From: a virus
IMG/VR virus record: IMGVR_UViG_3300038701_000543
DNA: 34,262 nucleotides
Direction: 5' to 3' (one strand)
Of the stretch, positions 28,820 to 32,379 are shown piece after piece (positions within the stretch are counted from its first letter, which is position 1; the number at the start of each line of letters is the position of its first letter). A program made the position numbers and the translations under genes. The notes below the pieces were generated by a model. It saw only the letters and a list, made by a program, of their open reading frames with translations, was not told where the DNA came from and made no database searches.

Positions 28820-30997
28820 ATGCAGTCGCCAGCCCAGCAAGCCGACCACGCGGAGGTCGTGAATTTCCTGCGCACCATCACAGACGGATGGGCCGAGATC
28901 GCAGACGAGCAGCCGCAGCTCGAGCTGCGCTGCATCGGGCTTAACGGATCCATCTCGGTCGCCAGGTTCAGCCACACAGCCGTCGAAGACGCCGCGCACC
29001 ACGCGGTCGAGATGAACCAGCACCACCAGAACGTCTACGCCTGCGTGAACCCGGTCAACCCGAGCGCTGATCGCCGCGGCGCCAAGGATGCCGACATCCT
29101 GGCCGCCTTTTTTTGCTTCGCCGACGCTGACAGCACCGACAGCATGGCCAACGTCACGGCATTCGCCGGTCCCAAGTTCACCATGAGCGTGCGCACCGGC
29201 ACGGTGCCGTATCTGCGCGGGCATGCGTACTGGCGGCTGGAAGAGCCGGTGCGCAACCTTGACGCCTGGCGTCAGGTGCAGAGAGACATTGCCGCCAGGC
29301 TGCAGACCGACAGCACCGTGGTGAACCCCAGCCGCATCATGCGCGTGGCAGGCACAATGTCCTGGCCGCCCGAGCGCAAGCGCATGAAGGGGTACGTGCC
29401 CGAGCTGGTCACCATGCGCACAGAGTTCTCGACCGATCGGGACCCGGTGCCGTTCGAGCGCATGATGCGCGCCTTCCCGGCAGACAGCGCAGCGCCCGGC
29501 ACCGGCCAAGGCGTCCAGATCGACCTCGGTCAGCAGGCCATGGACCGAGCGCTGGCCGAAGCCGACATCCTGGCAGGCAAGAACTGGCACCAAAACGTCG
29601 TGCGCCTGGTCGGATCATACGTCACCCGCGGCCTGACCGACGCAGAAATTCACGCCCTCACCGACCGGTTCACGATGGCCGGCTACACCGTCGAGGACAC
29701 CAGGCGCGAGGTGCAGACCGCCATCGACGGCGCCAGGGCCAAGGGCTGGACCCCGGCACCCGACCCGGCAGCCGAGCGCATGGCAGCGCAGGTCCCGGAA
29801 CAGGCCGCAGGAGCCGCTGAGAGCGCCGCTGACGGGCAGGTCGGGCAGGCGTGGCCGACACCCGTGCAGGCGTTCAACGCCGCCCTGCTGCCGCGCAGAC
29901 GCTGGGTCTACGACAACGTGTACATCCGCAGCTATCTGACGGTCACAGCATCGGCAGGCGGGATTGGCAAGACGTCCCTCGCACTGGCCGAAGCCATCGC
30001 GATCGCAACAGGGAAGCCGATCCTGCAGCGCCCGGTGCGCGAGCAGACAAACACATGGGTCATTAACCTCGAGGACCCCAGAGCAGAGATGCAGCTGCGT
30101 CTGGCATCCCTCATGCAGCACTACCAGATCAGCCACGCAGATCTGGCAGGCAGGCTCTTCATCGACGGGGAAGACGACATCCAGATCACCCTGGCTGCCG
30201 AGGGCAGAGACGGCGTCATCACGAACGACGCACTGCTCGAGCTGATGGCCACCAAGATCCGCGAACACAAAATCGGCTGCGTGATCGTGGACCCTTTCGT
30301 CAGCACTCACGCAGTCAACGAGAACTCCAACGTCCAGATCCAGATCGTCGTCGCCATGCTGCGCAAGCTGGCCCGCGACACCGACTGCGCCGTGCATCTG
30401 ATCCACCATGTGCGCAAGGGCAACGGCGAAGACGCCACCGTTGACAGCATCAGAGGCGCCAACGCCCTGATCGGGGCGGCGCGAGCGGCCAGGGTCATCA
30501 ACCGCGTGAGCATCGACGACGCCATGCGCCTTGGCATCGAGGAAGAGCAGGCGTCTGGCCTGTTTCGCATTGACGATGCAAAGGCCAACCTGGCAGCGCC
30601 GGCAGACAAGGCGCTCCACATGCGCACGATCGGCGTCGAGATCGCCAACGGCGAGTGGATCGGGACGGTGGTGCCAGTGCAGCTGCCCGACCTGTTCGAC
30701 GGCATCACCGCGCAGCAAACCATTCAGGTGCAGCGCGTCGTGGCCGAGGCCGAGCGCAGCAACGAGCCGCTGCGCGACAACGTGCAGGCAAAGCAGTGGG
30801 TCGGGCACGCGATCGGCGAGGTCCTCAGCATCGATACGACCGAGAAGCACGGCAAGGCGCGCGTCAGCGGCATGGTCAAGCAGTGGGTCAAAACCGGGGT
30901 GCTGAAGGTAGAGCGGGTGTACGACAAGAAGCACAGCCGAGAGATCGGCACGGTCGTCGTGGGCAAAATGATCACCCGAGAGGAGGCTGGGTTGTGA
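28820..30997 (+). CDS. Primase-polymerase (AEP-type) fused to a RepA/DnaB-like P-loop helicase
   Basis: 725 aa. N-terminal half: NVYACVNPV, FCFADADS (DxD), RGHAYWRL (xGxH), IMRVAGT. C-terminal half: Walker A SAGGIGKTS, Walker B CVIVDPF, and HHVRKG. Confidence 0.82.
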   Translation: MQSPAQQADHAEVVNFLRTITDGWAEIADEQPQLELRCIGLNGSISVARFSHTAVEDAAHHAVEMNQHHQNVYACVNPVNPSADRRGAKDADILAAFFCFADADSTDSMANVTAFAGPKFTMSVRTGTVPYLRGHAYWRLEEPVRNLDAWRQVQRDIAARLQTDSTVVNPSRIMRVAGTMSWPPERKRMKGYVPELVTMRTEFSTDRDPVPFERMMRAFPADSAAPGTGQGVQIDLGQQAMDRALAEADILAGKNWHQNVVRLVGSYVTRGLTDAEIHALTDRFTMAGYTVEDTRREVQTAIDGARAKGWTPAPDPAAERMAAQVPEQAAGAAESAADGQVGQAWPTPVQAFNAALLPRRRWVYDNVYIRSYLTVTASAGGIGKTSLALAEAIAIATGKPILQRPVREQTNTWVINLEDPRAEMQLRLASLMQHYQISHADLAGRLFIDGEDDIQITLAAEGRDGVITNDALLELMATKIREHKIGCVIVDPFVSTHAVNENSNVQIQIVVAMLRKLARDTDCAVHLIHHVRKGNGEDATVDSIRGANALIGAARAARVINRVSIDDAMRLGIEEEQASGLFRIDDAKANLAAPADKALHMRTIGVEIANGEWIGTVVPVQLPDLFDGITAQQTIQVQRVVAEAERSNEPLRDNVQAKQWVGHAIGEVLSIDTTEKHGKARVSGMVKQWVKTGVLKVERVYDKKHSREIGTVVVGKMITREEAGL

Positions 30998-31902
30998 CAG
31001 CGTACTACAACGAGATCGACCCGAAAGCCGCAGCATGGCTGCGCGAACTGATCAAGCAGGGACACATTGCACCGGGAGAGGTAGATGAAACCGACATCAG
31101 AGACGTGGATCCAGATCGACTGGGTCGATACACTCAATGCCACTTCTTCGCAGGCATCGGCGGATGGAGCCTCGCCCTGCGCCTCGCAGGATGGCCAGAC
31201 AGCCGTCCTGTTTGGACGGGATCCTGCCCGTGCCAGCCGTTCAGCGCGGCAGGCCGAAGAGCAGGGACTGCTGACGAGCGGCACCTCTGGCCGCACTGGC
31301 ACCACCTCATCAGCCAGTGCCAGCCTGCAGTCGTATTTGGCGAACAAGTTGCAAGCAAAGACGGCCTCGGCTGGCTCGACCTTGTACAAGCTGACATGGA
31401 AGCAACGGGATACGCCGTCGCAGCTCAAGATATCTGCGCTGCGGGCGTCGGTGCGCCGCACATCAGACAACGCCTCTGGTTCGTCGGGCTGGCCGACGCC
31501 AAGCAGCCGGGATTGGAAAGACAGCCCCGGCATGGCGACGGCAGGCACCAACCCGGACGGCTCGACGCGAACGCGGCTGGATCAGTTGCCGAGGCAAGCA
31601 TCTCTAGCAGCGTGGACGACCGAGGACGGCCCGACCCGACGAACGGTCGCTGGCGCGATGCTGACTGGCTCTTCTGCCGAGATGGAAAGTGGCGGCCAGT
31701 TGAACCCTCGGTTCAGCGGATGGTTGATGGGTTATCCAACGATCTGGTGCGAGGCGGCGCTATCGTCTCAGCAGCCTACCCGCTCGCGAAAAACCAAGAG
31801 CGGCGGGTAATGCGACTGCGCGGCTACGGCAATGCCATCGTCCCGCAAGTCGCAGCCGCGTGGATCGAAGCCGTGATCGAGTACGAAAGAGAGCAGCCAT
31901 GA
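30994..31902 (+). CDS. DNA (cytosine-5) methyltransferase
   Basis: 302 aa from GTG 30994 (GTGA overlap with the primase stop; aggagg 8 nt upstream). Motif I FFAGIGG, IV PCQPFSAAG, VI-like VFGEQV, VIII GAPHIRQRLWF, X GYGNAIVPQ. Confidence 0.85.
   Translation: MTAYYNEIDPKAAAWLRELIKQGHIAPGEVDETDIRDVDPDRLGRYTQCHFFAGIGGWSLALRLAGWPDSRPVWTGSCPCQPFSAAGRRAGTADERHLWPHWHHLISQCQPAVVFGEQVASKDGLGWLDLVQADMEATGYAVAAQDICAAGVGAPHIRQRLWFVGLADAKQPGLERQPRHGDGRHQPGRLDANAAGSVAEASISSSVDDRGRPDPTNGRWRDADWLFCRDGKWRPVEPSVQRMVDGLSNDLVRGGAIVSAAYPLAKNQERRVMRLRGYGNAIVPQVAAAWIEAVIEYEREQP
31085..31810 (+). CDS. Nested +1-frame ORF inside the methyltransferase gene, with WPTP / LNPxFxxWLMGYP motifs
   Basis: 241 codons, with ATG 31085 preceded by gggagagg. 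Contains ...STLYKLTWKQRDTPSQLKISALRASVRRTSDN..GWPTPSSRDWKD...RLDQLPRQA...LNPRFSGWLMGYPTIW. G/C third positions are 133/180 versus 119/180 for the methylase frame over 31261-31800 (hand count). Confidence 0.45.
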   Translation: MKPTSETWIQIDWVDTLNATSSQASADGASPCASQDGQTAVLFGRDPARASRSARQAEEQGLLTSGTSGRTGTTSSASASLQSYLANKLQAKTASAGSTLYKLTWKQRDTPSQLKISALRASVRRTSDNASGSSGWPTPSSRDWKDSPGMATAGTNPDGSTRTRLDQLPRQASLAAWTTEDGPTRRTVAGAMLTGSSAEMESGGQLNPRFSGWLMGYPTIWCEAALSSQQPTRSRKTKSGG

Positions 31903-32020
31903 CCCCCGAATACCCCGTGCCCACCTTGGTGGGGAACAGGTGGGCAAGGTGGGGAAATGCCGCCGAAAGCAAGCGGGCGCGACGCACGTGACATGGCGCA
32001 AACAAGGCAAGAAGGCACAA

Positions 32021-32080
32021 AAAAACCGCCCATCGGGCGGCTGCTTCTCGGGGTTTCCCCACCTTGTTTGTTGAAGTCCT
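32021..32080 (-). ncRNA. Candidate ~60-nt small RNA transcribed leftward within the non-coding hub
   Basis: Bounded by the promoter at 32085-32113 (-) and the terminator at 32026-32040 plus T7. Predicted RNA: AGGACUUCAACAAACAAGGUGGGGAAACCCCGAGAAGCAGCCGCCCGAUGGGCGGUUUUUUU. Confidence 0.35.
32026..32040 (-). terminator. Intrinsic terminator oriented for the minus strand
   Basis: ccgccc-atc-gggcgg (6 GC pairs), preceded on the plus strand by A7 (32019-32025). This gives stem+UUUUUUU on the minus strand. Confidence 0.55.
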
Positions 32081-32084
32081 CCGG

Positions 32085-32113
32085 ACTTTACCAAGTGGTG
32101 GGCAACCCGTCAA
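32085..32113 (-). promoter_or_regulatory. Sigma70-type promoter on the minus strand
   Basis: TTGACG (rc of 32108-32113), exact 17-nt spacer, TAAAGT (rc of 32085-32090). Confidence 0.45.
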
Positions 32114-32196
32114 CCCCCCCCGAAAAAGGCGGGGAAGCACCTAAAAGGAGTTGGCACCCAAGGCTGCCAACACACCTTTTGTTTTCGGTGCCTCTT

Positions 32197-32252
32197 CCCC
32201 ACCCCACCCCCTCGCTTCGCTCGCCCCTGGCGGGGGTAGGGGTGGGGTGGGG
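32197..32252 (+). other. 14-bp perfect hairpin (C-arm/G-arm); the G-arm region is a canonical G-quadruplex motif
   Basis: ccccaccccacccc (32197-32210) is the exact reverse complement of ggggtggggtgggg (32239-32252). 32232-32252 reads GGGGG-TA-GGGG-T-GGGG-T-GGGG. It is followed by the hairpin ggaccg-gcacgt-cggtcc plus ttt (32251-32271). Confidence 0.8.
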
Positions 32253-32283
32253 ACCGGCACGTCGGTCCTTTGGACCAATCAAA

Positions 32284-32312
32284 TTGAAGCAAAGGTCTGT
32301 GTCGGCTAAGAT
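32284..32312 (+). promoter_or_regulatory. Candidate sigma70-type promoter for the rightward late operon
   Basis: TTGAAG (32284-32289), 17-nt spacer, TAAGAT (32307-32312). A leader hairpin ggagggcg (32319-32326) / cgccctcc (32342-32349) lies downstream, then SD taggagg. Confidence 0.4.
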
Positions 32313-32379
32313 GAAGTTGGAGGGCGCGCTGCGCCAACAGCCGCCCTCCTGATCGCAACCTAAAGCCTAGGAGGTCGCA

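Follow-up and report, generated by a model that had tools for sequence, protein, structure and literature searches.

The methyltransferase M.EcoHK31I consists of an alpha and a beta chain, beta being encoded wholly in a different reading frame within the alpha gene; alpha carries motifs I-VIII and X together with a predicted recognition domain, beta carries motif IX, activity needs both chains, and in vitro beta can do without its first 42 residues (PMC2836561; PMC3404938). M.AquI, reported by Karreman and de Waard in 1990, is a two-subunit C5 methyltransferase that is split in the variable region, its small chain holding a part of that region and motifs IX and X (PMC3404938). A layout like that of M.EcoHK31I was found in the virus record IMGVR_UViG_3300038701_000543, whose whole 34,262-nucleotide (nt) stretch is called the window (GC content about 63%). 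Here a C5 cytosine methyltransferase gene (30994-31902), whose methylase-frame product is called alpha, encloses an open reading frame (ORF) of 241 codons in the +1 frame (31085-31810), whose product is called beta; both, like the other parts of the methylase locus described below, are on the plus strand. Alpha and beta are probably the two subunits of one C5 cytosine methyltransferase, for which a single stretch of DNA, the beta gene lying inside that of alpha, serves in two frames. The layout itself is already published for M.EcoHK31I, where it was described once, in 1995; the family is very large, common in phages and mostly mis-annotated. No description of this layout in phages was found in the literature, and the name 'Mte8', which comes from the annotation of Pseudomonas phage PMG1, led nowhere.

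The window locus shares with M.EcoHK31I a beta gene nested wholly in another frame and the same distribution of motifs, I-VIII and X in alpha and IX in beta. The alpha chains are also of similar size, 302 amino acids (aa) here and reportedly 309 aa in the 1995 work of Lee, Kam and Shaw, whereas beta has 241 aa here and is said to have 176 aa in M.EcoHK31I. The dispensable N-terminus of that beta chain may have a likeness here in some 75-95 N-terminal residues without selection of their own. M.EcoHK31I differs in belonging to a type II Escherichia coli restriction-modification system with the recognition sequence YGGCCR, whereas the window gene is an orphan located by replication genes. A further difference is that in the window the variable region of alpha is neutral and predicted to be unfolded, with conserved W-P-T-P modules lying in beta. 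M.AquI is likewise made of two polypeptides, the smaller with recognition-domain sequence and motif IX, but its small subunit also holds motif X, its large subunit holds half the variable region, and its small-subunit gene is said not to be nested in the other gene. The monomeric enzymes M.HhaI and M.HaeIII (PF00145) have in common with alpha motifs I-VIII and the large-domain fold, and motif IX of M.HhaI aligns with beta; in such single-chain enzymes motifs VIII and X are separated by a recognition domain and motif IX read in one frame with them, whereas here the alpha frame has an unconstrained linker at this place and the putative equivalent sequence is read in the +1 frame. Same-strand nesting with a joint product is also known from the spanin genes of phage lambda, where Rz1 is embedded in the +1 frame of Rz and the two proteins form one functional complex, although these lysis proteins are unrelated and Rz1 has about 60 codons, compared with a nested gene that covers about 80% of its host gene here.

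Alpha most likely starts at GTG 30994, which overlaps the TGA (30995-30997) of an upstream gene matching primase/helicase PHROGs (28820-30997, 725 aa) and is preceded by a Shine-Dalgarno-like motif, GAGAGGAGG (30978-30986), read from the sequence. In order, the protein has a catalytic large domain of the C5 cytosine methyltransferase type, a linker free of constraint, and motif X. Catalytic motifs I (FxGxG), IV (PCQ), VI (ENV-like) and VIII (QxRxR) are all found, as FAGIGG (31147-31164), PCQPFS (31228-31245), GEQV (31339-31350) and QRLWF (31468-31482). The match to PF00145, at 55.2 bits against a cut-off of 22, spans residues 75-169 only. Residues 1-298 match positions 9-316 of the 327 in the phrog_363 profile (E 2e-86), in one frame throughout, and since this match runs from end to end in one stretch alpha is not a frameshifted gene. 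By hhalign alpha aligned with residues 4-173 of M.HhaI (E 8e-12), which covers motifs I-VIII only, in agreement with an earlier note on this DNA that had described the methylase frame as lacking motif IX. AlphaFold2 modelled residues 1-165 and 281-300 confidently and residues 167-280 with a predicted local distance difference test score (pLDDT) of 30-40; a Foldseek search with this model returned M.HhaI and the large domains of DNMT1 and other DNMT proteins over about 165-190 columns. No folded small domain was found between motifs VIII and X of alpha, and the Pfam and hhalign matches end at about residue 170. Residues 167-222 or so (about 55 residues) form the unconstrained linker, which is followed by a conserved block of low model confidence, ADWLFCRDGKWRPVEP, and then by motif X (GNAIVPQ, 31828-31848), in which G279, N280 and A281 are invariant, with a C-terminal helix after it (pLDDT 81-89 over residues 281-300). 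No restriction gene adjoins alpha, an orphan beside phage replication genes.

The beta ORF described in the earlier note is present in the ORF list, and the motif strings quoted there for both frames were all located. The start signal that had been proposed for it was also found: GGGAGAGG (31074-31081) is followed by a +1-frame TAG and by ATG 31085, the whole element spanning 31074-31087. Among homologues a +1-frame ATG recurs at three positions relative to the CHFF motif (-18, -12 or -8 codons), in most cases together with a Shine-Dalgarno-like motif, and an ATG follows the last +1-frame stop in all 62 non-redundant loci compared, against 35.7 expected from synonymous recoding. Recounting G/C at third codon positions reproduced the earlier values for the methylase frame exactly (119/180 over 31261-31800 and 19/40 over 31321-31440) and corrected those for the nested frame slightly, to 131/179 instead of 133/180 and to 30/39 instead of 31/40; the statement drawn from them, that the nested frame appears no less coding than the methylase frame, holds. 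The core of beta begins at 31373, upstream of alpha motif VIII at 31468, and includes the strings WPTP (31490-31501), RDWKD (31508-31522) and LDQLPRQA (31577-31600); among homologues the cores contain one to four W-x-T-P modules. Beta matched phrog_1008 (E 1e-25) and phrog_31772 (E 4e-16). Pfam and NCBIfam scans of beta matched no family, and neither PDB searches with the beta profile and with a profile of motif IX only nor a Pfam profile search gave anything meaningful. A protein collection clustered at 90% contained 3,841 beta homologues, none with a Pfam domain, and among representative clusters made at 50% identity beta matched 16,626, with E <1e-30 for 7,169. In the low-confidence model of beta, residues 76-95 form a helix, 101-123 a hairpin and 208-227 further helices.

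The element of beta that corresponds to motif IX, GQLNPRFSGWLMGYPTIW (31694-31747), lies over the alpha sequence ..GKWRPVEPSVQRMVDGLS and was aligned by hhalign with residues 272-290 of M.HhaI, RKLHPRECARVMGYPDSYK; the pairwise P was 9e-4, and the M.HhaI sequence was confirmed against PDB chains. The proposal in the earlier note that LNPxFxxWLMGxPxxW is the equivalent of motif IX is borne out by this alignment, and the putative assignment holds at the level of the motif only. Across beta homologues the residues G, L, P, W, L, M, G and W of the motif are invariant.

In typical relatives an alpha segment, EPGTFPLAHGxPARVGRLR, and the beta segment NPAHSRWLMGYPPEWDDCA share the same bases. The window departs from them by a 63-nt insertion at about 31742-31804, identified by DNA alignment with typical homologues, which is specific to its subfamily and keeps both frames. 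This insertion of 21 aa parts the alpha YPLAKNQERRVMRLRGY block from beta motif IX. It pulls the PLAxG..RVxRLRGYGNAI stretch of alpha off that motif and in part resembles a duplication of the FPLAHG-coding sequence. At the same point locus L005 (about 2000-2500) has an alpha insertion of about 150 aa. The insertions in the window and in L005 split the alpha segment that looks like motif IX (PVEP | PLAxG) and leave the beta motif contiguous, a comparison that speaks for beta as the bearer of the functional motif IX and for separate maintenance of each frame.

Conservation of the two frames was examined in 84 homologous loci, made up of loci from phage records and 80 IMG/VR loci that had been collected with the alpha protein as query and so form a sample without bias toward beta. 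Both frames are open in 84/84, the open +1 stretch covering 63-98% of the gene and that of the +2 frame reaching 37-106 codons only. Using beta as query, tblastn identified 246 phage records, at their methylase loci. The +1 ORF was found in Edwardsiella phage PVN06, cyanophage Cr-LKS3, Pseudomonas phage PMG1 and Xanthomonas phage PhiXhv-28, and the ORFs of these four share the motifs GSTLYKLTWK, RTSD, W-P-T-P, DQLPRQA and GQLNPxxSxWLMGxPxxW. It is also present in Citrobacter and Marinobacter phage-plasmids and, with 334 codons, in an E. coli prophage at about 52% GC; the layout thus recurs at lower GC, in genomes of about 52-54%. Megablast of window positions 10000-34000 against the INPHARED phages returned the methylase locus only, at about 75% identity over about 500 nt; by this measure the phage is one without a close sequenced relative, and its DNA is best conserved in the gene under double constraint.

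A scan of IMG/VR with beta motif IX as a DNA pattern yielded 120 loci (among L089-L208). In 100/120 of these pattern-selected loci the PCQ-bearing alpha is in the -1 frame relative to beta, and among the 100 the alpha is of the YYNE/CHFFAGIGG type in 42 and of a canonical xLFxGxGG/ENV type in 46. This second alpha subfamily (46/120; for example L202, L179 and L183) reads SLFSGIGG, PCQPFS, GENV, RRxR and LGNAVVPQ, and the beta that accompanies it ends in QLNPxWVEWLMGxPxGWTD. Since the second subfamily too has a nested beta, the layout is not limited to the phrog_363 family of the window.

Variants of the layout were also seen. In locus L030 (1259-2695) beta extends 472 nt beyond the alpha stop to a length of 479 aa, with a C-terminal tail rich in Ala, Asp and Glu, and in several other loci the beta stop lies 4-40 nt downstream of the alpha stop. 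Motif X is in a separate ORF of 90-116 aa in L151 (on the same contig as L069), L165 and L183, and in L181 the parts are spread over three frames; these four could be assembly indels, pseudogenes or genuine alternative layouts.

The positions at which the loci vary change along the gene. Codon-position diversity changes phase, with its maximum at the alpha third position over 31085-31310 and at the beta third position over 31490-31624, and with low values at every codon position over 31355-31444 and 31670-31759. Selection on each frame was estimated in four zones by a simplified OLGenie-type method with 11 disjoint sequence pairs of 80-97% identity, as dNN/dSN for alpha and dNN/dNS for beta (rates of change that is nonsynonymous, N, or synonymous, S, in alpha and beta in turn), and compared with a simulated null in which selection acts on alpha only (kappa 3). 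The null gave beta ratios of 0.72-1.13. In zone A (31130-31354) the alpha ratio was 0.12 and the beta ratio 0.57, which lies within the null range of 0.44-1.21 and is indistinguishable from it; alpha motifs I-VI are strongly constrained there, the beta N-terminus is of low complexity, and it appears to be a by-product of the alpha sequence. In a Citrobacter relative (L086) the beta ORF opens only 3' of the PCQ motif. In zone B (31355-31489), where alpha motifs VII-VIII (..QRLWF) lie over the start of the beta core (GSTLYKLTWK, ISALRASVRRTSD), the ratios were 0.08 for alpha and 0.20 for beta, against a null mean of 1.13, and diversity at the alpha third position drops to 0.26-0.34. Zone B is true dual coding.

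Zone C (31490-31669) gave 0.94 [0.82-1.09] for alpha and 0.36 [0.20-0.61] for beta, clearly below the null range of 0.57-0.84; here the W-P-T-P / RDWKD / LDQLPRQA module of beta is constrained and alpha is an unconstrained linker. In zone D (31670-31759) the ratios were 0.68 and 0.32, and in zones B and D alike the beta ratios are at or below the lower edge of the null. Comparison with 65 partners of <72% nucleotide identity, with independent synonymous recoding of alpha as the null, showed the same at deeper divergence: beta identity in zones B, C and D was 0.64, 0.38 and 0.61 against 0.33, 0.18 and 0.27, roughly double what the methylase frame by itself predicts. In zones C and D beta is also more conserved than alpha (0.38 against 0.30 in zone C). 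To judge from these substitution patterns, alpha is neutral and beta under purifying selection between motifs VIII and X. The earlier note had named, as a joint argument against a gene pair, the lack of stand-alone homologues of the nested product and the lack of excess constraint; about 200 loci yielded no stand-alone beta gene, but the excess constraint is strong, so that this joint argument does not apply.

These data suggest a model in which one mRNA would be read from two starts in two frames. Ribosomes initiating at GTG 30994 would make alpha, with its S-adenosylmethionine-binding and catalytic large domain, a linker free to vary, and motif X with the terminal helix. Those initiating at the internal ATG 31085, behind its own Shine-Dalgarno-like GGGAGAGG, would make beta in the +1 frame. 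The first 75-95 or so residues of beta would be a by-product of overlap with the conserved motifs of alpha, and its core, predicted to consist of a helix, a hairpin (GSTLYKLTWK..RASVRRTSD), a W-P-T-P module and the contiguous motif IX, would supply the small target-recognition domain with motif IX that alpha is missing. In the assembled enzyme the NPRFSGWLMGYP helix of beta would take the position of motif IX. Alpha and beta would assemble into an active orphan phage C5 methyltransferase, and, with no restriction gene adjoining, this enzyme would methylate the phage DNA and so allow it to evade host restriction. As to its origin, one may speculate that the recognition domain and motif IX stretch of a monomeric ancestor were put out of frame by compensating indels. 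The earlier note had offered a genuine overprinted gene pair as one explanation; the pair is real, as the open frames, the kept ATG and the purifying selection indicate, but de novo overprinting was rejected, since beta has a canonical motif IX, accompanies two alpha subfamilies and forms 16,626 protein clusters.

Beta might instead be a real gene that is independent of the methylase, encoding an anti-defence or regulatory protein, with alpha a complete enzyme that has a minimal recognition loop. The failure of beta to match Pfam, NCBIfam or PDB sequences, its poor stand-alone model, and the conserved alpha segment before motif X that loosely resembles motif IX would all fit such a gene. Against this, the most conserved element of beta is the one that aligns to canonical motif IX, of which alpha has no contiguous copy, and natural insertions split the alpha look-alike; alpha between motifs VIII and X is neutral and predicted to be unfolded, suggesting that it has no recognition domain. 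That the layout accompanies two different alpha subfamilies, and that M.EcoHK31I, the one studied case, needs both chains, likewise speaks for a joint enzyme, and we consider an independent beta unlikely.

Much less probable still is recoding, which the earlier note had also raised as +1/-2 shifts: ribosomes past motif VIII would change from the methylase frame to the +1 frame, possibly with a later return, so that a single-chain enzyme results and the +1 ORF is no gene of its own. Motifs I-VIII, a W-P-T-P module and motif IX on a single chain would give an enzyme of conventional appearance, and in 3/120 IMG/VR loci (the above L151, L165 and L183) the alpha N-terminus is in fact in frame with the beta C-terminus. 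These fused loci are rare, however, and look like indel variants of normal relatives (L069 compared with L081). A mid-gene frameshift would not require the +1 frame to be open already near the 5' end, nor the ATG that is conserved there (62/62 loci) together with a Shine-Dalgarno-like motif; a shift after motif VIII at 31468 would miss the start of the beta core at 31373, the usual -1 shift from alpha leads into the closed +2 frame, and motif X could be reached only by two compensating programmed shifts. Least credible is an artefact, either a chance ORF in GC-rich DNA or the splitting of a conventional methylase by sequencing indels, the latter being another suggestion of the earlier note. 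A window of 63% GC does contain many long alternative-frame ORFs, which makes ORF length alone weak evidence, and synonymous shuffling of the methylase frame left open +1 runs of 120 codons on average for the longest, compared with 241 observed (p ~0.007). An artefact is refuted by the match of alpha to phrog_363 over its full length in one frame, by the two-frame layout in 84/84 loci, genomes of about 52-54% GC included, and in hundreds of independent sequences, and by a beta that is under purifying selection and more conserved than alpha in zones C and D.

Several points weigh against a two-subunit enzyme with motif IX in beta. The motif IX match is short and weakly significant, with an hhalign probability of 23% beside the pairwise P of 9e-4, and the conserved alpha block ADWLxCRDGKWRPVEPGTFPLAHGxP loosely resembles motif IX, so that alpha might be self-sufficient. 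AlphaFold2 modelled beta alone poorly (pLDDT 55; predicted template modelling score, pTM, 0.22), which would fit folding that depends on a partner and would equally fit disorder. The selection estimates come from 11 sequence pairs and a simplified method, with zones B and D at the edge of the null range, and the OLGenie-type method has a known transition/transversion bias, for which the simulation served as control. The likeness to M.EcoHK31I is one of layout and motif distribution, no database hit bore the name of that enzyme, and the literature places the recognition domain of that enzyme in alpha, not beta. It is mainly by analogy with M.EcoHK31I that we infer translation of beta, its binding to and assembly with alpha, the need for both chains and the biological role.

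Of the phages named above, PVN06 has the alpha frame annotated. Cr-LKS3 (g58; L002, 1504-2241) and PMG1 (PMG1_00057, 'Mte8-like'; L003, 1620-2381) have the beta frame annotated as 'methyltransferase' and alpha left out, and in PhiXhv-28 both frames are called 'DNA methyltransferase' (L004, 1495-2487 and 1577-2482). In PMG1 (L003, about 1268-1600) the first 25 or so alpha codons (AYYNEID...) lie in the beta frame (APTTTNSTHMPLSG...), and on this reading its alpha N-terminus is frameshifted, by a sequence error or a real mutation. In the prophage of E. coli ECCTRSRTH03 (L085, 2456-3658) an intact alpha of 400 aa is called two 'incomplete' partial pseudogenes of a DNA cytosine methyltransferase by PGAP/RefSeq, and the 334-codon beta ORF, with four W-P-T-P-T modules, is unannotated. 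Elsewhere in the window, the roughly 480 nt 3' of the methylase gene (31903-32379) hold no convincing ORF, a 131-codon GC-type ORF at 31957-32352 being listed; a 473-codon antisense ORF (minus strand, 29615-31036) lies opposite the primase/helicase gene and is of a kind to be expected at 63% GC; and the window as a whole yielded no tRNA.

Annotation pipelines permit one frame only, and the beta-like family, for all its 16,626 clusters, is without a Pfam or NCBIfam model. We tentatively propose that in a very large clade of C5 methyltransferases from phages and prophages a nested beta may be the standard layout, with the whole recognition domain in the +1 frame. If this is true, the clade takes in two or more alpha subfamilies, its genes number in the tens of thousands, and the layout is not a peculiarity of M.EcoHK31I; its recognition domain would consist of one to four W-x-T-P modules and motif IX, encoded over a neutral linker of the catalytic subunit, and beta would set sequence specificity, evolving through gain and loss of modules. 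With the whole recognition domain in beta, the layout would be a variant of the M.EcoHK31I scheme. The pair may then rank among the longest and most widely conserved same-strand nested pairs in double-stranded DNA phages. Targeted methylation has already been built on naturally split enzymes of such a type (PMC2836561). Should the recognition domain lie in beta, the 5-methylcytosine specificity of phages would be predictable from beta and could be re-engineered through it. The pair, with a nested gene of 241 codons or more, selection measurable in the two frames over very diverse hosts, and zones constrained in one frame, in the other or in both, offers a natural system for the study of how two proteins share one sequence.

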